The position numbers and the translations under genes were made by a program. Shown here one piece after another: positions 1,811-11,743 of a stretch of 15,431 nt of DNA (position 1 is its first letter; each line of letters opens with the position of its first letter). The notes under the pieces were generated by a model. It was given only the letters and a program-made list of their open reading frames with translations, did not search any database and was not told the origin of the DNA. This DNA is from Verrucomicrobiales bacterium (GTDB lineage: Bacteria > Verrucomicrobiota > Verrucomicrobiia > Verrucomicrobiales > DEV007): positions 1 through 15,431 of the forward strand of contig JANQMB010000108.1 of NCBI GenBank assembly GCA_028280355.1, read 5' to 3'.

Positions 1811-1958
1811 CAGTATTCTTTCGGGTCGAATTTTTGGGTTTGTCCCCTAATTCCCTTATCTTCTGGGGTCTGCCTGCCCCCTATGATTGCTGCATGAATT
1901 TGTTCTAAGGTCCCCTGCTCCCCCCGCGTCCCCTATCCCACAGACCACCAACAAAGAC
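1811..1958 (+). promoter_or_regulatory. AT-rich (for this genome) non-coding region upstream of the secreted-protein gene; probable promoter/5'UTR
   Basis: Local drop in GC, for example tattctttcgggtcgaatttttgggtttgtcccctaattcccttatcttc. No frame here has coding-like GC3. It lies directly upstream of ATG 1959. Confidence 0.3.
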
Positions 1959-2414
1959 ATGAAGAGACCAATCGCAATCCTCGCCGTCCTCTCCGCTCTC
2001 GCCATCTCCAACAAGGCGGACGCCGCCGCCGCTGGCGGGGCGATTATCTATGCCGATGGCAAAGAGGTCGCCGGCTACGTCGACAGCTTCCCCGACGGTC
2101 CGATAGACCCTTCGTGGGCCGCCCCGCTGCTCGGGCGCCTAGAGGGGGTCGCTTTGAAACTCGCGGATAGCCACGTTGTCGTGGTGGATCCGAAAGACGA
2201 CACGAAGGCGACCCTGAAGGGCAAGATCAAGGTGTCCGCGAGCTTCAGGGGCAGGGAGATCGCCACAGCCAAGACCGACAAGCTCGGCCTCGTCAAACGC
2301 GATGGGGAGTGGTACGTCTCGGGCAAGGAAATCGACCGCATCATGGTGGCGGCCGGCGCGAAGGCCCCTGAAAAGGTTGTCGAGCAGGCCCCAGAGAAGA
2401 AAGCGGGCAAGTGA
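1959..2414 (+). CDS. secreted/periplasmic hypothetical protein, 151 aa, Lys-rich C-terminal half, Sec signal peptide
   Basis: Internal ATG at 1959 of track ORF 1887..2414 gives MKRPIAILAVLSALAISNKADA|AAAGG. This is a positively charged n-region, a hydrophobic core and an AxA cleavage site. The upstream TTG extension crosses the AT-rich region and is unlikely to be coding. Codon usage is somewhat AT3-richer than in neighbouring genes. Confidence 0.7.
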   Translation: MKRPIAILAVLSALAISNKADAAAAGGAIIYADGKEVAGYVDSFPDGPIDPSWAAPLLGRLEGVALKLADSHVVVVDPKDDTKATLKGKIKVSASFRGREIATAKTDKLGLVKRDGEWYVSGKEIDRIMVAAGAKAPEKVVEQAPEKKAGK

Positions 2415-2471: not shown

Positions 2472-5400
2472 CTAGTCCCCCTGCTGCACATCGGACTCGA
2501 TATCCACAGGAAGCTTCGGCGCCGCCGATTTCTTCTTCGCCGTCTTCTTCTGGGGGCGTGACGGCGCCTCCTCCACGGGCTGCACCTTGATCTCCACATC
2601 CACCGGCACGGCGCGCAGGCCAGCGATGATCCCCTGTAGCTGCTCGACGGTCTGCTCGGCCAAGGTCTGCGGCTGGCTGTAGCTCTGGCCGGCGGTGACG
2701 ATGGTCTCCCTGATGTCGTCGAGCCCCTTGCTGAAGGCGCCCATGGCACCGACGACGCGGGAGACCGGGTCGTCCTCACCGCCGCCGCCGAGCAGCTGGT
2801 TGCGGCTAAAAGTCTTGACGATCTCCTCCCAGCGCGTCGCCTCTTCGCCCTCGAGCAGCCCCTCCATCTCCTTGAATTTGAGCAAGTTGGCCTCCGCGCC
2901 GGAGGTCAGGGTCTGCGACTCGTTCTCGTAGTGGTCGATGATCGCCGCCTCGACCTCCCCGTCGGTCATCAGCGGCAGGATCTTCTCCGCCATGCGGTTC
3001 ATGTTGCGGTAGCTGCCCTGCAGCTTGAAGGCGGGTTCGGTGCGGTAGGCGTCCTCGGTGGCGGCGCTGCGGATGTACTCCTGGTTGACGCGCAGCACCG
3101 AGTCGCGCACGCGCATCAGCTTCCTCGTCACCGAGACCAGCTCCTCGATCTCGTCGGCCGTGTAGTTGCCCTCGAAGTCGACGCCCTCGGCGCCCCCGGT
3201 CTCGGCGATGTGCATCACCGCGTAGACGTCCTTCTGCGAGCGGCTGGCCAGCTTGCCCATCACCGGGTTGGAGGTGAGGGCGTTCTCGATGTAGCTGTTC
3301 TCGAAGGCGCGCGCGTGGGCGCCGATGATGTCGCCCAGGTTGTAGGTGTCGGCCCGGTTGGCGAGCATGTCCGGGATCTGGAACTTGCCGCCGCTCTCGG
3401 TGTAGGGGTTGCCGGCCATCACCACGGCGACCTTCTTGCCGCGCAGGTCGTAGGTCTTGGCGCGGCCGTTGTAGACGCCCTCGATCTTGCGCTGCGCGTC
3501 GCACAGGGAGATGAACTTCTGCAGGAACTCGGAATGGCAGTGCTGGATGTCGTCCAGGTAGATCATCACGTTGTCCCCCATCTCCAGGGCGAGGTTCAAC
3601 TTGAGGATCTCCTCGCGCGCGCCGGCGTTGGGCGCGTCCTCCGGGTCGAGCGAGGTCACGTCGTGCCCCAGCGCCGGCCCGTTGATCTTCATGAAGGTCA
3701 CGCCGAGCCGGTTGGCGATGTACTCCATCAGCGTGGTCTTGCCGTACCCGGGCGGCGACACCAGCAACAGCATCCCCATGCGGTCGGTGCGGGTCTCATC
3801 GCCCGCGGTGCCCATCTGCTTGGCCAGGTTGTCGCCCACCAGCGGCAGGTAGACCTCGTCGAGCAGCCTGTTGCGCACGAAGCTGCTCATGACCCGCGGC
3901 TTGAACTCGTCGAGCCGCATCCGCTCGCGCCGCCCGGTCACCAGCGCGGTCTTGAGGGTCACGAATGACTCGTATCGGGGCACGGCCTCGCGGCAGAAGT
4001 GGCGCAGCCGGGCGGTGAACTCCAGGTAGTCGAAACGGTAGCCCTCCGGGGAGACCCGCGGGTGCGCCCCGGACAGCCCATCGATGTCGCGCGCCAGCTC
4101 CACCTCGACCACGTGCTGTGCCTTGAAGCCGCGCAGCAGCTGCACGGCGGCCTCGGGGAGGTAGGTCTGGTCGGCGGCCGCGCCACCCTCCGCGCAGAGC
4201 AGGCCGGCCAGCCAGTCGGTGAGCGCCTGGTAGCGGGCGACGGTGTCCCCGTCGAGCTCGGCGAGCGCCTGCTCGAGCTTCTTGCTCAGGCGGCGGGCGG
4301 TGAGCGTCTTCTTGAAATGCCCCACCAGCTCCCCCGCCGCGGCCGAGATCGAGGTCTGCTCCGGGTCGAGCAGCTCGTGGAACAGGTAGAGCGCCGCCTC
4401 GTCCACGTCGCAGCCCGCGAGGCGCGGCAGCGAGACGGCATAGCGGTCGAGGAAAGAGGCGAGCAGCTCGCGCAGCTCGGCGATGTAGGTCTCGCGCGCC
4501 TCCAGCCCGGGGAAGCTGAGCGCGGCCATGCCGAACGAGCGCAACTTGGCGGCCAGCTTCTCCTTCTCCGCGGCATCGCCCCAGGCCTGCCAGAACAGGA
4601 GCCCCAGCGCGCGCTCGGCCGGCGGGTGCTTGAGCAGACCCGCGCCCCGGTGGATCGGCAACAGCGCCTCGAGGATCTTCGCCGCATCGCGGTCGTGGAC
4701 GCCCTTGGTGTACCCCTCGGCATAGCGCGGCGCCATGAACTCGCGCCCGGCCTCGGCGAGCTCCCCCCCCCCGGGGGTATCGGCCGCCGAGCCGCCCGGC
4801 GCGCCCTCGACCTCCTCCAGAAACTTCCAGGCCAGGTACTCGGCGCGGTAGACCTCCCCGTTCTCGCTGACGACGGTCTGCTCCCAGACCGGGCGCGTGT
4901 CGAGGAAGCCCTCGTCGTCGATGTGCTCGAAAAACTCGGTGCCGTTGAGGTGGAAGAACATTTCGCCGTCGCGGGGGACGGCGGTCAACTCGAGGTCCTG
5001 GGTGTTGACGTTGAAGCGGTGCTTGCCGAGCTGGATGATGTCCTTGCCGTCGACGAACAGCTCCTGCCGGTCCTTGAGCTGGCGCACGGCGTCCTCGCGC
5101 ACGGTCTTCAGGCGGGTCGAGACGTCGTCCGCCTTCACCGAGTCGCCGAGCTTGGTCAGCCGCGCGATGATGTCGCGCACCTTCTCGATCATCAGGTCGC
5201 CGGCGAAGTAACCGTTGATCTCGTTGACCGTGCCGAAACCCTCCAGGCGGCGCCTGATGCCACCGAGGATCCGCTCCGCCGACTTCAGGAGCGCGCCCGC
5301 GCGCCGCCCGCGCTCCTCGAGCAAGGCCTGCTTGCGCGTCTCGAAGGCCTCGTAGATCCCCTCGCGCTTCTCGGCCAGCTCGGTGATGTACTCGTCGAAC

Positions 5401-7622
5401 TCGCCGAACTTCCCCTCCAGCTCCTCGAGGGTGACCATGGTCTTGGTCAGGAACTCCTCGCACTTCTCCGGCGTCTCGCAGAGGTCGAGGTAGTTGATGA
5501 CCGCCTGGTCGAGCAGCTTCACCTGCGCGCCGAACTGCGCCTCACCCTCGACGCGCGCCAGCTCCCTGCGGCGGTTCTTGAGCGCCACTTTGACGGCGTT
5601 GAGCTCGGCGTAGATGGTCGAGATGTCGTCGATGATCGCCGTGGTCTGCGTGGCGTCCTCGATCTTGAGGTTGCCGACGATCTCGATCAGCATCTCCAGC
5701 TCGCCGCCCGCCGCGGCGATCGCCTCGCCGACCCCGTCGGCCTCGGTCACCTTGTCCAGCTTGCCGATCTTCGCCTGCTGTGTGGCGACGGCTTTGCGGT
5801 AGGGGTCGAGCGCCTCGGGCTTCAACAGGAAATTCACACAGGCGGCGGAGACCTTGTCGGTCGAAGCCACCACGTCGGCCTCCAGGGTGTCGACGGTTCC
5901 GGGGTCGACGTAGCGCAGCTCGCGCAGGCCGATCACCTCGCCGCGCACGGAGCGCAGCTCGGCGAGGCGGTGGACGAAACCGAGGATGTCGTCCGGCCGG
6001 GTGTGCTCGGCGGCCGAGAGGATCTTGCGCACCGCGTCGCCGACCCGCCCGGTCTCGTCGCGGGCGGCCTTGCGCAGGCGCTGGACTTTGTCGAACTCGT
6101 CGATCGCCGCCGCCGCCGCGCCGCGGATGACCTCTAGCGGTTCCCGCAGCCCGCCAGCCTCGCTCTGGCCGATCCAGAAGTAGCTGTCGCAGATGTCACC
6201 GGTCTTTTTCGCCAGGTCGACGTAGAGGTCGCCGTAGCTGTCGTCCTTGCCGAGCAGGGTGAGCACCTCGTGGCACTCGGCCATGCAGCGCACGACGTCG
6301 GCGTTGCCGATCTTGTAGAGATAGGAGCCCGCCGCCTCGCAGGGGGGGGCGTGGTCGCCGGCGGTGTACGGCGTCTGCCAGACCTGTAGCGCGTGGTGCT
6401 TGCCGGGCTCCTCCTCGGCGCGGAAGTAGATCATCTCGCCGGACCCGAACAGGCTGTAGCCGCTGCACAGGATCGGCGTGTCGACCTGCTGGCTGATGAG
6501 GTTGTAGGGCATCAGCACGTATTCGCCGCCGCGCCGGTTATAGAAGACGAAGAGGAAGTCCTCGCCGTTGGAGGAGGCGATGCGACGCTCGAAGACCATC
6601 TGGTCGAGCCCGTTGGCGAAGATCTTCGTCTCGCCGGTCTGCAGGTGGTATCCGTCGGCGAAGATGATGCCGTGGTCGTCGGGCAACAGCACGCAGGAGT
6701 GGCGGATGGAGTCGATGCGCTCGACGCGGCCGGTCTTCTCGTTGAACACCAGGATGCGGAACTGCTCCTCCTGGTAGGGCTTGATCTGCAACAGGATCAG
6801 GCTGCCGACGATCGCGTAGAAGACCTCGGCGTCGTCCAGGGTCTGGTCGGCGTTGTCGACCGGCTCCGAGTAGACGCCCTGGCCGGTCTCGGTGTTGTCC
6901 TCGACCTTGACGGTGAGGTCGCCACCGATGGTCTCGACGAAGAGGCGGTCGTCGACCGAGATATGCGGGTGGGCCCCGGGCCGGTGCATCTCGCGGTGGG
7001 CGCGCACCCAGTCGAACTCCTGCTGTGGGGGGAAGACGTACTCGTGGTCGGAGCGGTTGCCGACGTACTCTAGTTTGCCCTCGCCGATCCGGAACTTGAA
7101 GGTCTTCAGATCGTCGACGTCGCGCCCGATGCGGAAGGCCATGAAGAGGTGCGGGCCGCGCACCATGAACTTCACGAACAGGGTCTCCTTGTAGTACTTG
7201 TAGAGATACTTGAAGTCGTCGGCGAAACCGTCGCCCTCGATCAGATCCGAGAGCCCGAGGGCGTGGAAGATGTGCGTCTCGCTATCGTGGCGGTAGACGG
7301 CGAAGACGTCTGAGAGCTCGGTGGTGGACTTGAGCCCGAGCTGGACGTTGTAGCCGAACAGGAACACGCCGCCACCGATCGCCACCATGTCGCGCGGGGT
7401 GCAGTTGTTCTTGGTGGTGACCCGCTCGGTCGCCACCAGCTCCGGCTCGATGGCGCCAAACACCGCCTGGCGCTCGCCGTTGAGTTTGCCGAGGCGCCCG
7501 CGCAGGTCGGCCGCGCCCCTCTCGAGGCGCGCCCGGATCACCTCGTAGGCGCCGCCCTCGAGCTGGGCGGAGGCGGCAGGGGCTGCTAGGGCCGCGGCTG
7601 TTTCGGGGTCAGGCATCGTCAC
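2472..7622 (-). CDS. giant multidomain protein (1716 aa): beta-rich aromatic N-terminal domain (~aa 50-480), long alpha-helical/coiled-coil middle, AAA+ ATPase module of MoxR/AAA_5 type (~aa 1280-1440), Lys-rich C-terminal tail
   Basis: The ORF is uninterrupted with normal amino-acid composition. All overlapping ORFs in other frames are Arg/Gly/Ala/Pro-rich shadows. Walker A LLLVSPPGYGKTTLMEY is encoded around 3732-3755 on the minus strand. Walker B NVMIYLDDIQ is encoded around 3543-3567. A sensor-like region KKVAVVMAGNP lies downstream. GTG 7622 sits 8 nt from a GGGAGGG Shine-Dalgarno. The alternative ATG 7616 overlaps the stop of the upstream small ORF as ATGcctGA. Confidence 0.9.
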   Translation of the reverse strand: MTMPDPETAAALAAPAASAQLEGGAYEVIRARLERGAADLRGRLGKLNGERQAVFGAIEPELVATERVTTKNNCTPRDMVAIGGGVFLFGYNVQLGLKSTTELSDVFAVYRHDSETHIFHALGLSDLIEGDGFADDFKYLYKYYKETLFVKFMVRGPHLFMAFRIGRDVDDLKTFKFRIGEGKLEYVGNRSDHEYVFPPQQEFDWVRAHREMHRPGAHPHISVDDRLFVETIGGDLTVKVEDNTETGQGVYSEPVDNADQTLDDAEVFYAIVGSLILLQIKPYQEEQFRILVFNEKTGRVERIDSIRHSCVLLPDDHGIIFADGYHLQTGETKIFANGLDQMVFERRIASSNGEDFLFVFYNRRGGEYVLMPYNLISQQVDTPILCSGYSLFGSGEMIYFRAEEEPGKHHALQVWQTPYTAGDHAPPCEAAGSYLYKIGNADVVRCMAECHEVLTLLGKDDSYGDLYVDLAKKTGDICDSYFWIGQSEAGGLREPLEVIRGAAAAAIDEFDKVQRLRKAARDETGRVGDAVRKILSAAEHTRPDDILGFVHRLAELRSVRGEVIGLRELRYVDPGTVDTLEADVVASTDKVSAACVNFLLKPEALDPYRKAVATQQAKIGKLDKVTEADGVGEAIAAAGGELEMLIEIVGNLKIEDATQTTAIIDDISTIYAELNAVKVALKNRRRELARVEGEAQFGAQVKLLDQAVINYLDLCETPEKCEEFLTKTMVTLEELEGKFGEFDEYITELAEKREGIYEAFETRKQALLEERGRRAGALLKSAERILGGIRRRLEGFGTVNEINGYFAGDLMIEKVRDIIARLTKLGDSVKADDVSTRLKTVREDAVRQLKDRQELFVDGKDIIQLGKHRFNVNTQDLELTAVPRDGEMFFHLNGTEFFEHIDDEGFLDTRPVWEQTVVSENGEVYRAEYLAWKFLEEVEGAPGGSAADTPGGGELAEAGREFMAPRYAEGYTKGVHDRDAAKILEALLPIHRGAGLLKHPPAERALGLLFWQAWGDAAEKEKLAAKLRSFGMAALSFPGLEARETYIAELRELLASFLDRYAVSLPRLAGCDVDEAALYLFHELLDPEQTSISAAAGELVGHFKKTLTARRLSKKLEQALAELDGDTVARYQALTDWLAGLLCAEGGAAADQTYLPEAAVQLLRGFKAQHVVEVELARDIDGLSGAHPRVSPEGYRFDYLEFTARLRHFCREAVPRYESFVTLKTALVTGRRERMRLDEFKPRVMSSFVRNRLLDEVYLPLVGDNLAKQMGTAGDETRTDRMGMLLLVSPPGYGKTTLMEYIANRLGVTFMKINGPALGHDVTSLDPEDAPNAGAREEILKLNLALEMGDNVMIYLDDIQHCHSEFLQKFISLCDAQRKIEGVYNGRAKTYDLRGKKVAVVMAGNPYTESGGKFQIPDMLANRADTYNLGDIIGAHARAFENSYIENALTSNPVMGKLASRSQKDVYAVMHIAETGGAEGVDFEGNYTADEIEELVSVTRKLMRVRDSVLRVNQEYIRSAATEDAYRTEPAFKLQGSYRNMNRMAEKILPLMTDGEVEAAIIDHYENESQTLTSGAEANLLKFKEMEGLLEGEEATRWEEIVKTFSRNQLLGGGGEDDPVSRVVGAMGAFSKGLDDIRETIVTAGQSYSQPQTLAEQTVEQLQGIIAGLRAVPVDVEIKVQPVEEAPSRPQKKTAKKKSAAPKLPVDIESDVQQGD

Positions 7623-7812
7623 CTTGTCGCCCTCCCGTGAAACGGTAGCCGGCGGCGTCCTCCGCGACCCGTCCGGTCGGCCTCGCCATCCCTAACTCGA
7701 AGGCGAGTTCGCAAAGCTCCGCCATCAAGTCGATGCGGGTGGCGATCGCCTCTGGCGTCATCGCCGTCGAGATCGCCCGCCCCAGCGGATCCGGCTTTTC
7801 AGTCTCGTCCAT
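7609..7812 (-). CDS. small hypothetical protein (~67 aa, MDETEKPDPLGRAISTAMTPEAIATRIDLMAELCELAFELGMARP...)
   Basis: High GC3 (~80%) in frame. The ATG at complement 7810-7812 is preceded by GGAGAAG about 10 nt upstream. It overlaps the 3' end of the nucleotidyltransferase gene by 14 nt. Its stop overlaps the start of the giant gene. The longer 85-aa version from 7866 would overlap the NTase gene by 68 nt and has no Shine-Dalgarno. Confidence 0.45.
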   Translation of the reverse strand: MDETEKPDPLGRAISTAMTPEAIATRIDLMAELCELAFELGMARPTGRVAEDAAGYRFTGGRQGDDA

Positions 7813-8272
7813 CCCGAATCTTCTCCAACGCTTCGACATCAGCCAGGTCCTGTGCCCTGCCCGCATTCCGCTTCATGGCGATGAGGTCGTCCATGCCGAG
7901 CACCCAAACCTTCCTGCCGCCAATCTCGAACTCGACCCTCTGCCCCCATGCCTCACGCATCGCCGGACCGACCTCGAGGAGGTCGAGCATGACGAGCTCT
8001 TCGCGATCGACGCGCGAGATCCGGTGTACGACTTGCTCCTCATCCGAGTTTCTCCTGAAGGTCATTGTGTCCGCCCGGAGTATAAAGCCAGCCGCCCGGG
8101 CAAGTTCTTTCACGCGCGCGACATCGTCGCTCGCGACGAGGAGATCCACGTCCTCCGTGGCGCGAGGGTAGCCGTGGATGGCCACCGCCCACCCCCCGCA
8201 GATCGCATAGTCAACCCCAGCGTCAGACAGGGCATCGACGATCTCGTAGAACGCCTTCCTAACGCGGTTCAT
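7799..8272 (-). CDS. minimal nucleotidyltransferase (Pol-beta superfamily, MNT-like), 157 aa
   Basis: ICGGWAVAIHGYPRATEDVDLLV is a G[GS]-x(9-13)-[DE]-x-[DE] Pol-beta NTase motif, here with Glu/Asp (E-D-V-D) as the putative metal ligands. The C-terminal LGMDDLIAMKRNAGRAQDLADVEAL matches the conserved tail of small MNT-type nucleotidyltransferases. ATG 8270-8272 lies 2 nt after the flotillin stop. Confidence 0.8.
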   Translation of the reverse strand: MNRVRKAFYEIVDALSDAGVDYAICGGWAVAIHGYPRATEDVDLLVASDDVARVKELARAAGFILRADTMTFRRNSDEEQVVHRISRVDREELVMLDLLEVGPAMREAWGQRVEFEIGGRKVWVLGMDDLIAMKRNAGRAQDLADVEALEKIRDGRD

Positions 8273-8274
8273 CG

Positions 8275-10359
8275 CTATGCCCCCAACCCCTTCAGCAACT
8301 CCCCGGCCTTCTCCTCGGCCAGGCCGAAGCGCTCGGCGGCGCCGAGCAGACCCCTGAGCTTGGCGGTGGTCGCCTCGCTGTCGCTGGCGGCGATCATCTG
8401 CCCGAGCAGGGCGCTGACGCTGAGGTTCTTCAGGTCCTCGCTGCTCACTCCGAACTGCTCGATCCAGCTCGCGACCTGCGCCTTGAAGTACTCCGGGTCG
8501 CCGTTGAAGAAGGTGTCCCGCACGTCGCTCAGGGCGCGGCTGTTGTCGATCGTGCGGTCGACCGCCTTGCCGTTGGTGATCGCCTTGGTGATCTTGTCGA
8601 AGAACTCCGACTCGCCACCGACGATGTCGATCTTGGCGCTCTTCAGGGCCTCGCCGACGACCTTCGCCTGCTCGGCGGCGATCTGGCGCTGCACGTCGAT
8701 CTCGGCCAGCTCGACCTGCTTGTCCTTCTCGAGCTCCAGCTTGAACTCCTCGTGGCCCTGGCCGGCCTCCTCGAAGAGCTTCATGGCGGCGGCCTTCTTC
8801 TCGATGCCCTCGGCGTCGGCCTCGAACTTCTGCCTGGCGACGCTGGCCTCGGCCGTCCCCTGCCTCTCGGTGGCGTCGGCCTTGGCCTTGAGGACCTCGG
8901 CCTCGCCCAGGCCTTCGGCGGCGGCCTCTGCGGCGGTGGCGTCGGCGAGCATCTTCTTCGCCGCGGCCTCCTTCTCGGCCGCCTCCTGGGTCGCCTCCGC
9001 CTCGGTGACCACCTCCTGGGCGTGCAGTTCGGAGGCCTGGCGCCCCGCGTCGGCGGCCTTGACCCGCTCGTAGAGCTCCTGGTCGGCCCTCAGCTGGGCG
9101 GCCTCCTTGACCGCCTCCGCCTCCTTGATCTTCTTCACCAGCGCCTCCTGGGCATCCTTCTCGGCCAGCGTGACGGCGACCTGTTTCTCGCGGTCGGCGC
9201 CGGCGAAGGCCTCCGTGTCCAAGATGAGCTGCTGCTCCTCGACCACGGTCTTCTCGACGGCGACCCGCTCCTTGATGACCTCCTGGATGTTGCGCTTCTC
9301 GACCTCGACCTCCTTGTCACGCTCGATGCCCTTCAGGGCGGTGACGCGGTCACGCTCGATGGCCTCGAGCGAGCGATCGCGCTCGACGCGCTCCTTCTCC
9401 ACCGCGTCGGTGCGCTCTCGGTTGCGCGCGGCGACGATGACCTGCCGGTTTTTGTTCTCCTCGGCCACCTGCAGTTCCTCCTCGGTGGAGATGCGCGCCT
9501 GCTCCGACTTGAGCCGCTGCTCCTCCTCGACCTTCTTCGCCTCCGCCCCCTCGCGCGCCTGTACGGCGGCGACCTCGCGGGACTGCTTCGCCTCGGTCTC
9601 CGCGAGCTGCCGCTCCAGTTCCAGGATCGCCTCGCGCGCCTCGACGTCCTGCTGCTTGATCACCTTCTGTTTGTCCCGCTCGATGTCGTTGGTGAGCATC
9701 GCCTGCTCGGCGGTCTGCTTGGTGATCTTCTTGATGCCCTCGGAGTCGAGGATGTTGTCCGGGCTCATCGCCGCCAGGGGCGTCTGCTCGAGGTAGTCGA
9801 TCGAGGCGTCGTCGAGCACGAAACCGTTCAGGTTGGTGCCGATCACCTTGACGATCTCGTCGCGGAAGGTGTCGCGCTCCTCGTAGAGCTCGGTGAAATC
9901 GAAGCGCTTGCCCACCGTCTTCAGCGCCTCGGAGAACTTCGCGTCGAACAGGTGCTCGATCTCCTTGTGGCTCGAGGCGCGGGAGCAGCCGATCGACTGC
10001 GCCACCCGCTTGACGTCCTCGTTGACCGGGTTGACCCGGACGAAGAAGGCCACCTTGATGTCGGCGCGGATGTTGTCCCTGCAGATCAGGCCGTTGCTTC
10101 CGGAGCGGTCGATCTCGATGCGCTTGACCGAGATGTCCATGATCTCCTTGCGGTGGATCACCGGCAGGACCAGCATGCCCGAGAAGGTCACCTTGGTCTC
10201 GCCCATCCCCGTGCGCACCAGCGCGCGCCCCTGCTCCACCTTCACGAAGCACTTCAGGACGACGATGACCACCAGCACCAGGACGGCCACCGCTGCCGCG
10301 ATGACGATGCCGACGATGTTCTGTAGAAAGTTCGCTAGGGTTGGGTCGATGGCTGTCAT
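8275..10359 (-). CDS. flotillin-family protein (SPFH/band-7 domain plus extended E/K/A-rich coiled coil), YqiK/FloT-like, 694 aa
   Basis: N-terminal TM helix IVGIVIAAAVAVLVLVVIVVL. The SPFH core (~aa 40-230) includes EQGRALVRTGMG...TFSGMLVLPVIHRKEIMDISVKRIEID...IRADIKVAFFVRVNP. A very long heptad-like E/K/A/Q-rich region follows, then a conserved flotillin C-terminus. ATG complement 10357-10359 is preceded by a GAGGAGA Shine-Dalgarno. Its start overlaps the stop of the upstream gene as ATGA. Confidence 0.9.
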   Translation of the reverse strand: MTAIDPTLANFLQNIVGIVIAAAVAVLVLVVIVVLKCFVKVEQGRALVRTGMGETKVTFSGMLVLPVIHRKEIMDISVKRIEIDRSGSNGLICRDNIRADIKVAFFVRVNPVNEDVKRVAQSIGCSRASSHKEIEHLFDAKFSEALKTVGKRFDFTELYEERDTFRDEIVKVIGTNLNGFVLDDASIDYLEQTPLAAMSPDNILDSEGIKKITKQTAEQAMLTNDIERDKQKVIKQQDVEAREAILELERQLAETEAKQSREVAAVQAREGAEAKKVEEEQRLKSEQARISTEEELQVAEENKNRQVIVAARNRERTDAVEKERVERDRSLEAIERDRVTALKGIERDKEVEVEKRNIQEVIKERVAVEKTVVEEQQLILDTEAFAGADREKQVAVTLAEKDAQEALVKKIKEAEAVKEAAQLRADQELYERVKAADAGRQASELHAQEVVTEAEATQEAAEKEAAAKKMLADATAAEAAAEGLGEAEVLKAKADATERQGTAEASVARQKFEADAEGIEKKAAAMKLFEEAGQGHEEFKLELEKDKQVELAEIDVQRQIAAEQAKVVGEALKSAKIDIVGGESEFFDKITKAITNGKAVDRTIDNSRALSDVRDTFFNGDPEYFKAQVASWIEQFGVSSEDLKNLSVSALLGQMIAASDSEATTAKLRGLLGAAERFGLAEEKAGELLKGLGA

Positions 10360-11096
10360 TGTATCTCCTCTGTCTTTATGGGTTCCGTTTTACGGATGGT
10401 GTAAATCTGTGTGCCCTCCTCGTGGTCGATGACCATCACCTCGTCGCCGCGCGAAAGCGGCCCGGCGCCCCCGGCGACCCGCGCCTGCAACAACAGCGGC
10501 GAGCCGTCGATATCGACCTCCACCTGCCCGTAGCTCTCCGTCACCTCGCCCGTCTTGACGACGCCGACGCAACCCACCACCTTGACCTCCTCGCGGGCGC
10601 CGCGTCTAAGACCGCGCATCAGCGGTTTCATCGGGCTGGTGACGATCCGGGTGAGGGTGGCGCTGGTGATGAAATTCCCGACCAGCAGCCCCGCGGCCAG
10701 GACGAAACCGCCGCCGGGGTTGAGGTAGTAGTTGGCGATCATCGATGTCCCCCACATGAGCAGCGACATCATGCTGATCACCAGCGTCAGCGGCACCTCG
10801 CCCGCGTTGACAAACTTGAGGACGGCCACCCCGAGGTCGCCGAGCCCGCCACCGCTGTGCGCGCCGTGGAGGTCGTGGCCGGACGAGTGGTCGCCATCAG
10901 CGTGGGCGTCGACGTGGGCATCGACGTGGGCGTCCACATCGATGGCCACGTCCATGTCCCCGTCCAGGTCGACGTCGAGGCCCTCGTGGTGTGCGAGGCC
11001 GACCGCCACCATCAGCCAGTAGAGGCCGACGAGGCAGAGCAGCACGGTGAGCGGCAGGTTGTGCCAGACCAGGGCTTCTTGGACAATCTCTCCCAT
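10356..11096 (-). CDS. NfeD-like / YqiJ-like (DUF1449-type) membrane protein with C-terminal OB-fold beta domain, 246 aa
   Basis: N-terminal TM helix LTVLLCLVGLYWLMVAVGLA. An acidic His/Asp-rich loop follows. Two more hydrophobic helices are LGVAVLKFVNAGEVPLTLVISMMSLLMWG and GGFVLAAGLLVGNFITSATL. The C-terminal beta-rich segment VKVVGCVGVVKTGEVTESYGQVEVDIDGSPLLLQARV...GDEVMVIDHEEGTQIYTI is typical of the NfeD OB-fold. It sits upstream of the flotillin gene, the canonical NfeD-flotillin (yqiJ-yqiK) arrangement. Confidence 0.8.
   Translation of the reverse strand: MGEIVQEALVWHNLPLTVLLCLVGLYWLMVAVGLAHHEGLDVDLDGDMDVAIDVDAHVDAHVDAHADGDHSSGHDLHGAHSGGGLGDLGVAVLKFVNAGEVPLTLVISMMSLLMWGTSMIANYYLNPGGGFVLAAGLLVGNFITSATLTRIVTSPMKPLMRGLRRGAREEVKVVGCVGVVKTGEVTESYGQVEVDIDGSPLLLQARVAGGAGPLSRGDEVMVIDHEEGTQIYTIRKTEPIKTEEIQ
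10899..10934 (-). repeat. tandem 12-nt coding repeat (3 units) encoding (D-A-H-V/A)3 inside the His/Asp-rich loop (~10842-10991) of the NfeD-like protein
   Basis: Plus-strand units agcgtgggcgtc / gacgtgggcatc / gacgtgggcgtc run in tandem. The minus-strand frame translates them as DAHVDAHVDAHA. The antisense plus frame shows WASTWASTWAST in track ORF 10732..11022. Confidence 0.7.
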
Positions 11097-11228
11097 TGCA
11101 GTTTCAGATCACGTCCCCAGAGGTTGGGGGCGATGCGGTGTGGCGGTCAAGCCCGCCACCACCACCCCCTCTGCCCCGGAGACTTTCTCTACGCCGTGAA
11201 AATTAGGTGGCCAGCCGCCCCATGCCTA

Positions 11229-11253
11229 TTATAAAGGGGTTGTGCGTTTATAA
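11229..11253. promoter_or_regulatory. pair of palindromic TTATAA hexamers (centres ~19 bp apart) in the divergent intergenic region between the NfeD-flotillin operon and the HTH regulator gene; candidate operator / -10 elements
   Basis: ttataaa ggggttgtgcg tttataa. These are the only AT-rich islands in an otherwise GC-rich 185-bp intergenic region (11097-11281). They lie 30-50 bp upstream of the regulator start codon. Confidence 0.3.
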
Positions 11254-11281
11254 CCGCGCTCCGCCCCAACCCGCATACCGG

Positions 11282-11743
11282 ATGGAATCCCACGAAGTCA
11301 TCAAGAACGCCTGCGAGAAATGTAGCCCGAAGGAGGTCGCCGCAGAGCTCGGCGTGTCCCTCTCGCTCGTCTACAAGTGGGCGCAGCCCAACACCGAGCT
11401 CGGCAGCGGCAGCCGGAACCCCCTCGACCGGGTGCTCGAGCTGGTCCGCATCACCCGCGACCCGAGGATCATCGAGTGGGTCTGCGAGCAGGCCGGCGGC
11501 TACTTCGTCCGCAACCCGAAAAGCTCCTGTGAGGAGGGATACGAGGTCATGCCGGCGACCACCCAGATCGTCGAGCAGTTCGGTGCGCTGTTGGCCGAGA
11601 TCAGCAAGGCCGCGCAGGACAACTCCATCACCGACGAGGAGTCGTCGCAAATCCGCAAGGTCTGGGATGCGCTGAAGTCATACACCGAGGGCTTCGTCAA
11701 CTGCTGCGAGGAGGGCGACTTCACCAAGATCCGCAACCCGTAG
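11282..11743 (+). CDS. helix-turn-helix DNA-binding protein, phage lambda CII-like HTH (…[21 protein letters not shown]…), 153 aa, putative transcriptional regulator
   Basis: Internal ATG of track ORF 11207..11743. The upstream extension from GTG 11207 is AT3-rich and spans the TTATAA boxes, so I reject it. The HTH segment resembles the CII motif (AE.[LV]GV..S.[IV]S.WK.). GC3 is high throughout from 11282. It is transcribed divergently from the flotillin operon and ends 11 nt before the SDR gene. Confidence 0.7.

Follow-up and report, generated by a model that had tools for sequence, protein, structure and literature searches.

The stretch analysed here, referred to as the window, comprises 15,431 bp of contig JANQMB010000108.1 (assembly GCA_028280355.1, a Verrucomicrobiales bacterium), has a GC content of about 67% and finds its closest relatives among the Verrucomicrobiales. 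Five tightly packed genes lie on its minus strand. They encode a YqiJ-like membrane protein, a flotillin-like protein, a minimal nucleotidyltransferase (NTase), a 67-residue protein and a giant AAA+ protein. Do these genes make up one system? A novel five-component system does not hold. The reading that we favour, with a probability of roughly 60%, is that the block is a composite of a conserved envelope-stress or membrane-remodelling operon (the YqiJ-like, flotillin-like and giant genes, here the core) and a separate, selfish cassette of two genes, the NTase and its small neighbour. In the order of transcription, the five genes are:

10356–11096, minus strand: YqiJ/YuaF-type NfeD-like membrane protein, 246 amino acids (aa); core gene 1, from orthology and hydropathy.
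8275–10359, minus strand: SPFH/flotillin-like protein, 694 aa; core gene 2, from orthology and synteny.
7799–8272, minus strand: minimal Pol-beta-fold NTase, 157 aa, DUF6036/NTP_transf_5-like; cargo gene 1, from Pfam and motif alignment.
7609–7812, minus strand: helical small protein, 67 aa, ATG at 7812; cargo gene 2, from a hidden Markov model (HMM) that finds it beside NTases.
2472–7616, minus strand: giant AAA+ protein, 1714 aa from the ATG at 7616; core gene 3, from Pfam.

According to the initial annotation, all five genes point the same way on the minus strand, one junction leaving a 2-nt gap and the others having stop and start codons that overlap, as in a single transcription unit. Reading the sequence confirmed the layout, and the junctions bear out the packing. 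The stop codon of the YqiJ-like gene and the start codon of the flotillin-like gene share an ATGA (10359–10356). The flotillin-like TAG ends at 8275 and is followed, after 2 nt (CG), by the NTase ATG at 8272. The NTase TGA (7801–7799) is placed 14 nt within the small open reading frame (ORF), whose own TGA (7611–7609) falls within the giant gene, an overlap of 8 nt from the ATG start or 14 nt from the GTG start. The first of these two giant starts, ATG 7616, is the one used in the public annotation of the same contig, and the protein deposited at NCBI is identical; the in-frame GTG at 7622 gives 1716 aa (2472–7622). In the frame of the small protein the longest ORF has 85 aa, from an ATG at 7866. 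ORF length alone is weak evidence here because the GC-rich window holds 87 ORFs of at least 50 aa on its two strands; each of the five genes has homologues, supporting it as real. A terminator scan found no terminator-like site above shuffle expectation inside the block. Such start and stop overlaps are no proof of functional unity, as two of the five genes appear to be hitchhiking cargo.

How far is the gene order conserved? Genomes, one per species, were scanned with an alignment of giants, using the Walker B region as search pattern, and giant relatives were found in at least 591 species genomes. Eighty loci were kept for synteny, from Verrucomicrobiota, Planctomycetota, Bacteroidota, Desulfobacterota, Kiritimatiellota, Omnitrophota and Clostridia, and 73 of them were informative in having enough upstream DNA. 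Of the 73, 70 have a flotillin-like gene directly upstream of the giant and on its strand (tblastn and all-against-all clustering), and a YqiJ-like gene precedes the flotillin-like gene in 53–57 loci. At the three exceptions (L044, L049 and L056), neither a flotillin-like nor a YqiJ-like gene could be detected within 10 kb of the giant. Among Bacteroidota, CesT_Tir_1 (2.9e-58) and PspA (6e-41) genes stand before the trio in 16–18 loci, where a divergent XRE/HTH_3 regulator and sometimes PLD are also encoded. The NTase and the small ORF are present in 0 of the 80 species-representative loci (tblastn; HMMs on six-frame peptides). The expectation that the five genes would keep their order in other genomes thus stood strongly for the giant with the flotillin-like and YqiJ-like genes, but not for the NTase and the small ORF.

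The three-gene core is real, conserved in at least seven phyla and already published. In a survey of phage-shock proteins, Ravi et al. (2024; PMC11237479) described the same operon computationally and reported that abbreviated three-gene operons without CesT-PspA are widespread in bacteria and archaea; the order around the Dokdonia protein ANH61663.1 in their Table S3 is that of the Bacteroidota loci seen here. The block had initially been left without assignment to any named system, a statement that this paper overtakes as far as the core is concerned. The work of Ravi et al. is purely computational and mentions neither the cassette between the flotillin-like and giant genes nor the cargo-slot behaviour set out below. 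A literature search found no experimental work on the three-gene core.

What are the products of the first two genes? They had been taken for an NfeD/YqiJ and flotillin pair, and their orthologues agree, with matches to YqiJ_N, NfeD and Band_7. Among the syntenic YqiJ-like orthologues, Pfam finds YqiJ_N in 14/23 (best 3.6e-8) and NfeD in 3/23. By hydropathy, the window protein has three hydrophobic segments (about 8–37, 103–121 and 130–149), and its C-terminal region is OB-like. The loop between the first and second transmembrane (TM) segments is strongly acidic, with an Asp/His-rich repeat (DVDLDGDMDVAIDVDAHVDAHVDAHADGDH…, residues ~40–75, 10872–10979, minus strand), and a DxDxD pattern in this loop is kept among orthologues in the alignment consensus, which suggests cation binding. 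For the flotillin-like protein, Band_7 is matched by 3/29 orthologues (3.3e-13), the SPFH domain being too divergent in most members, and no Flot (PF15975) match was seen. The family profile matches the SPFH protein QmcA (8z5g, 1e-3) in the Protein Data Bank (PDB), where a search with the window sequence alone found nothing. NCBI and JGI name orthologues 'flotillin family protein' or YqiK. The window protein has one N-terminal TM-like segment (6–45, hydropathy), followed by a Band-7 region of divergent sequence and a long coiled coil rich in Glu, Ala and Lys. Positive charges come after the single TM helix, which should leave the SPFH and coiled-coil body in the cytoplasm.

The third core gene encodes a giant AAA+ protein, as was proposed at the start and as Pfam bears out: DUF3686 (6.7e-181) covers residues 39–482, DUF7902 (1.2e-26) residues 603–687 and AAA/AAA_5 residues 1285–1408. 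From the N-terminus, the order is a helix, the beta-rich DUF3686 part, a helical rod of ~400 aa that includes DUF7902, a small beta domain, a helical domain, the single AAA+ module, a helical C-region and a conserved tail. Hydropathy shows no TM segment, and the giant is predicted to be cytoplasmic. The motifs of the AAA+ module are strongly conserved:

3732–3749, minus strand: Walker A motif, GYGKTT, from the translation; identical in 76/76 giants from several phyla.
3540–3563, minus strand: Walker B region, IYLDDIQH, from the translation; [IL]Y[ILV]DDIQH in 72/76 giants.

Two further motifs are as well kept, MAGNPY in 74/76 giants and DMLANRAD, which is near-invariant too. The giant gave 3073 homologue matches. 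Its family comprises 291 clusters at 50% identity (E<=1e-30), mostly of 1,600–1,900 aa, and giants from different phyla are 46–70% identical over ~1,700 aa. AlphaFold2 (AF2) modelled with confidence a helix at 25–55, a helical rod at 434–853 and a helical domain at 980–1160, and placed a small beta unit near 860–900. The N-terminal 1,160 aa had no Foldseek match at E<=0.001, only weak matches to propeller, solenoid and spectrin-rod folds, and a search of the giant profile against PDB sequences gave P-loop matches only, with no solved relative beyond generic AAA+ folds. JGI names one orthologue 'phage shock protein A'; a PspA-like rod was considered and rejected (hhalign probability 0.2%). The tail (residues ~1669–1716; 2475–2618, minus strand) reads LRAVPVxVEIKV(V)PV, a variable Lys-rich stretch and LPVDI…Q, and is invariant or nearly so across 18 aligned Verrucomicrobiales-type giants. 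It could be a docking or membrane-binding element.

The two genes between the flotillin-like gene and the giant are of another kind. Pfam assigns the third gene to NTP_transf_5 (6e-8), DUF6036 (2e-6) and, marginally, AbiEii (6.5e-5), with DUF2204 also matched, and the hGG…DxD…D motif is intact, its residues G26/G27, D41, D43 and D97 being invariant or nearly so in the alignment; both results uphold the first description of this gene as a minimal Pol-beta-type NTase. The family is of ~150 aa and gave 127 homologue matches, the best at ~44–47% identity; a literature search found no paper on DUF6036. The 67-aa protein carries the motif (D)M(S/T)PEAIxxR(I/L)xxxxEL, in its family form DMSxxAIxxRLxxxxxLxxLC and sometimes tandem-duplicated. 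No Pfam, NCBIfam, PHROG or PADLOC model covers this family, which on its motif and position we regard as an unannotated small-protein family and conserved partner of this NTase subfamily.

Does the pair occur without the core? It does. At one locus, L083, an NTase homologue lies between glycoside hydrolase and phosphoglucomutase genes, and a 55-aa ORF (L083:5465–5632) overlaps its stop and is 45% identical to the window's small ORF over a 38-aa core. A metagenome scan with a narrower NTase alignment gave 80 further NTase loci. In 27/82 NTase loci, including ones in the range L087–L129, the small-ORF HMM matches an ORF that overlaps or abuts the NTase stop, and flotillin-like, YqiJ-like and giant genes are found in none of these 27. 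The cassette is thus autonomous and patchy in distribution. Both its genes are also compositional outliers: the GC content at third codon positions (GC3) is 0.766 for the NTase and 0.779 for the small ORF, against 0.961 for the flotillin-like gene, 0.954 for the giant, 0.874 for the YqiJ-like gene and ~0.90–0.92 for the regulator and metabolic genes around the block.

The search with the flotillin-like protein gave closer relatives (L168–L170) than the search with the giant, and these show what becomes of the cassette. The closest relative, L168 (flotillin 87% and giant N-terminus 82% identical), has a cassette in the same slot with the same junctions (L168:2162–2820; TAG-CG-ATGAAC…; …GATGCCTGA), its NTase being 41% and its small ORF 32% identical to those of the window; the two NTases show no greater similarity to one another than to NTases found in unrelated contexts. 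In L170 (flotillin 75%), positions 5080–5491 hold only the C-terminal half of the NTase, without the catalytic N-half, and an intact partner of 65 aa. In L169 (flotillin 77%) the NTase is gone and a small-ORF remnant (3148–3366), 57% identical to that of the window, is left. Further out, L165 (giant 70%) has a Y1 transposase in the slot plus a weak small-ORF trace, and L166 (giant 67%) a bare 78-nt spacer. On the simplest account, the cassette entered the ancestor of this sub-clade once, then diverged very fast or was exchanged, and was finally lost. A toxin-antitoxin-like (TA-like) nature is suggested because the NTase is lost first and the small partner retained (L170, L169), which would make the NTase a putative toxin and the 67-aa protein a putative antitoxin. 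The pair may be a new TA-like family, and its decay series is instructive.

The spacer between the flotillin-like and giant genes, positions 7609–8274 in the window, is a general, recurrent landing site for cargo across the loci L003–L082. Its median length is 185 nt, and 35/70 loci have more than 200 nt; for the gap between the YqiJ-like and flotillin-like genes the median is 18 nt, with more than 200 nt in 3/51. The inserts are on the same strand as the core and mixed in kind: PDDEXK_3 (6 loci), IS200-like Y1 transposases, a ParE toxin, a SHOCT protein, DUF559 endonuclease-like proteins, an AbiEii NTase with DUF6922 (AbiEii in L036) and DMP19. Several uninterrupted spacers hold strong palindromes (L028:9895–9990, L017:9911–9960) that resemble repetitive extragenic palindromic (REP) elements or attenuator hairpins, and these may be linked to the REP-associated-type Y1 transposases found in the same slot of other loci. 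Why would cargo prefer this position? A plausible cause is that a strongly expressed operon supplies read-through transcription.

These observations undo the architecture proposed in the initial annotation, in which a membrane scaffold, a nucleotide-transferring enzyme and a large NTPase effector formed one module. That logic joins two unrelated units, and it fails because the NTase and small ORF are autonomous, are outliers in composition and decay in relatives.

Upstream of the core, the window holds a candidate regulator and the presumed control region:

11097–11281, no strand: divergent intergenic region of 185 bp, from the YqiJ-like gene to the CII-like regulator; presumed promoter/operator, from sequence only.
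11282–11743, plus strand: divergent CII/CP76-like helix-turn-helix (HTH) regulator; Pfam Phage_CP76 2e-11, PHROG_101 'CII-like transcriptional activator' 2.3e-14.

The 185-bp region showed no sigma-70 consensus, the sigma-70 model being uninformative for this phylum. Seven other Verrucomicrobia-type loci encode a homologue of the CII-like protein. In five of them (L004, L007, L017, L020 and L026) the homologue is divergent and adjoins the YqiJ-like gene on its upstream side; in L024 it lies further off, and in L032 it is co-directional. The CII-like protein is a candidate transcriptional regulator of the operon in this lineage. The outer flanks of the window are metabolic, with short-chain dehydrogenases/reductases, an FAA hydrolase, a DAO oxidase and a glyoxalase-domain protein. 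Beyond the 3′ end of the giant gene, a convergent ORF of 175 aa (1887–2414, plus strand) has an N-terminal hydrophobic, signal-like segment, a Lys/Ala-rich C-terminus and a GC3 of 0.78, below the local norm, and matches nothing in Pfam or PHROGs.

What might the core do? SPFH proteins and their NfeD partners form large membrane-attached cages (HflK/C, QmcA, flotillins), and AAA+ modules on large scaffolding domains typically remodel or disassemble such assemblies. In the model that we propose, the SPFH protein and its NfeD-type partner would assemble an oligomeric cage or microdomain on the inner membrane face, the giant would dock on this assembly through its propeller and rod, and its ATP hydrolysis would remodel, load or dismantle it. 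Where PspA and CesT are co-encoded, the giant may also act on PspA polymers. The operon would be part of an envelope-stress response under the divergent HTH regulator, and the recurrence of the PspA-CesT linkage makes envelope stress or membrane repair the most likely role of the core. The NTase and its small helical partner would have been inserted exactly into the spacer between the flotillin-like gene and the giant, in the ancestor of a small verrucomicrobial sub-clade, and would ride on the transcription of the operon and on translational coupling as a TA-type selfish module, dispensable for the core. The core operon links SPFH/flotillin cages and PspA/ESCRT-III, both actively studied, to a very large AAA+ ATPase.

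Several points weigh against this composite reading. The remodelling role is drawn from the architecture of the giant and from its neighbours, and the literature search found no paper that mentions DUF3686 and no giant of this family that has been studied by experiment. Confidence in the AF2 models is low to moderate: residues 1150–1716, for which a 14-sequence alignment was used, have a mean predicted local distance difference test (pLDDT) score of 59, with 70–88 in the AAA+ core, and residues 1–1160 a mean of 63. The beta-rich DUF3686 part (60–430) is poorly modelled, with low pLDDT, and its description as a 'beta-propeller' rests mainly on the literature. Foldseek matches the C-terminal model about equally to RuvB, Rix7, MCM, NorQ, spastin, FtsH and Vps4, and so assigns the AAA+ module to no one clade. 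Neither the YqiJ-like nor the flotillin-like protein of the window has a significant Pfam match of its own, both being assigned by orthology; with the 67-aa protein, they also lack significant matches in NCBIfam and PADLOC. PspA, a partner that points to envelope stress, is absent from the 15-kb window. On the side of the cassette, it is intact and coupled on both sides in at least 2 genomes, so that a lineage-specific functional tie to the operon is possible, and its partner gene lies downstream of the NTase, unlike AbiE and MenAT, where it lies upstream.

Could the five genes instead be one membrane-anchored anti-phage or abortive-infection system, with flotillin/NfeD as the sensor, a nucleotide signal made by the NTase and the giant as effector? 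The initial annotation leaned this way, and several features fit: the tight translational coupling across all five genes, the weak AbiEii similarity of the NTase, phage-type regulators next to the operon (CII-like here, XRE-type in Bacteroidota), a slot that draws TA-type and nuclease genes as defence islands do, and the very fast divergence of the cassette between close relatives. However, the PADLOC matches (PADLOC-DB v2.0.0, covering systems described up to 2023) are marginal only, IetA with 17.6 bits and 5.1e-4 over 29 P-loop residues and AbiEii with 8e-4. The NTase and small ORF are missing from 80/80 loci and decay in relatives with an intact core, and the same pair is autonomous elsewhere; the core, 46–70% identical between phyla, sits among housekeeping and metabolic genes, and its recurrent partner is PspA-CesT. 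A literature search for SPFH and AAA+ proteins in anti-phage defence found only an unrelated megaplasmid paper. We consider a five-gene defence system improbable, and the defence-like interpretation of the block finds no direct support; the core alone could contribute to phage tolerance through membrane surveillance.

Just as hard to credit is the idea that this sub-clade has co-opted the NTase cassette to regulate the core, the NTase for instance nucleotidylylating either the flotillin-like protein or the giant and the small protein serving as adaptor or inhibitor. The cassette does sit exactly between core genes, with a 2-nt gap and a stop/start overlap, and has the same junctions in a second genome; the catalytic residues of the NTase are intact, and in L036 the slot is filled by another cargo with the NTase fold (AbiEii). 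But would a regulator be given up so readily? The NTase is truncated in L170 and deleted in L169 while the giant and flotillin-like genes are retained, the pair exists without the core in at least 27 loci, its GC3 is an outlier, and the other cargo of the slot (nuclease, transposase, ParE) is heterogeneous. The weakest alternative, that the giant is a DNA-repair ATPase as its public names have it (Pfam DUF3686 'ATPase involved in DNA repair', NCBI orthologue name 'DNA repair ATPase', with RuvB among the AAA+ core's nearest matches in sequence and fold) and that its place beside flotillin is incidental, is very improbable, given that the RuvB similarity covers only ~45 P-loop residues at 20–26 bits overall, that RuvB models score 23–26 bits against cut-offs of 282–299, that Foldseek shows no preference for RuvB over six other AAA+ folds, that Pfam detects no nuclease, helicase or DNA-binding domain, that membrane-protein genes adjoin the giant in 70/73 loci across phyla, and that no supporting paper was found, the names having no traceable experimental basis.

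Taking the block as a core operon with a separate cassette, how do its parts compare with known systems? The operon of Ravi et al. is the closest match to the core, with the same three architectures, order and strand, the window representing its 'abbreviated' form. A 3-TM YqiJ/YuaF-type protein is encoded first; a flotillin-like protein comes next, in the window one without a Pfam match of its own; the DUF3686-coiled-coil AAA+ giant is present, with a propeller fold that is not confidently modelled; and order and strand are conserved across lineages. The CesT/Tir-PspA dyad, which belongs to the full form only, is absent from the window. The window also differs in its regulator, CII-like and not XRE-type, and in the NTase and small-ORF cassette between the flotillin-like and AAA+ genes. 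The first two genes resemble the SPFH2/flotillin-NfeD2 pairs YqiJ-YqiK of E. coli and YuaF-YuaG(FloT) of B. subtilis (Hinderhofer et al. 2009, PMC2636767), in which, as here, a 3-TM NfeD-like protein is encoded immediately upstream of, and translationally coupled to, an N-terminally anchored coiled-coil SPFH protein. Unlike those pairs, the window pair is followed by a ~1,700-aa AAA+ protein, and the SPFH domain is mostly below Pfam Band_7 and without a match to Flot.

The cassette is best compared with NTase TA modules (AbiEii/AbiEi of type IV, MenT/MenA of type VII, and MNT-HEPN). Like them it has a small Pol-beta NTase with its catalytic carboxylates intact and a small overlapping partner, and it is autonomous, patchy and fast-diverging, losing the NTase first and keeping the partner. 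The catalytic G[GS]…DxD…D of AbiE and MenAT is found in the window NTase, whereas a full-length AbiEii/DUF1814 protein with an upstream AbiEi/MenA antitoxin is not: the 157-aa NTase covers positions 12–112 of the 238-position AbiEii model at 23.4 bits, and its partner is neither an AbiEi-type winged-HTH protein nor a HEPN protein.

For the giant, the comparison is with Vps4 and ESCRT-III, NSF and SNAREs, and p97, and the likeness is one of analogy, an AAA+ ATPase genetically tied to membrane proteins that form polymers or cages. PspA is the bacterial ESCRT-III. Could the giant then be a bacterial counterpart of Vps4-type disassembly machines, recycling SPFH cages and co-encoded PspA polymers during membrane repair? 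We find this rather unlikely. Unlike Vps4, the giant has no MIT domain, and neither its sequence nor its fold gives evidence for the Vps4 clade; its N-terminal 1,160 aa also set it apart from the Vps4 systems, having no significant solved structural relative and no PspA-like segment. Were the giant such a disassembly machine, the three-gene operon would be a self-contained membrane-repair machine, and the tolerance of its spacer for cargo would reflect strong, stress-induced read-through transcription. A Vps4-like ATPase is apparently absent in bacteria according to a 2025 review (PMC7619361), and the giant offers a concrete and testable candidate for the PspA regulator that bacteria seem to lack.

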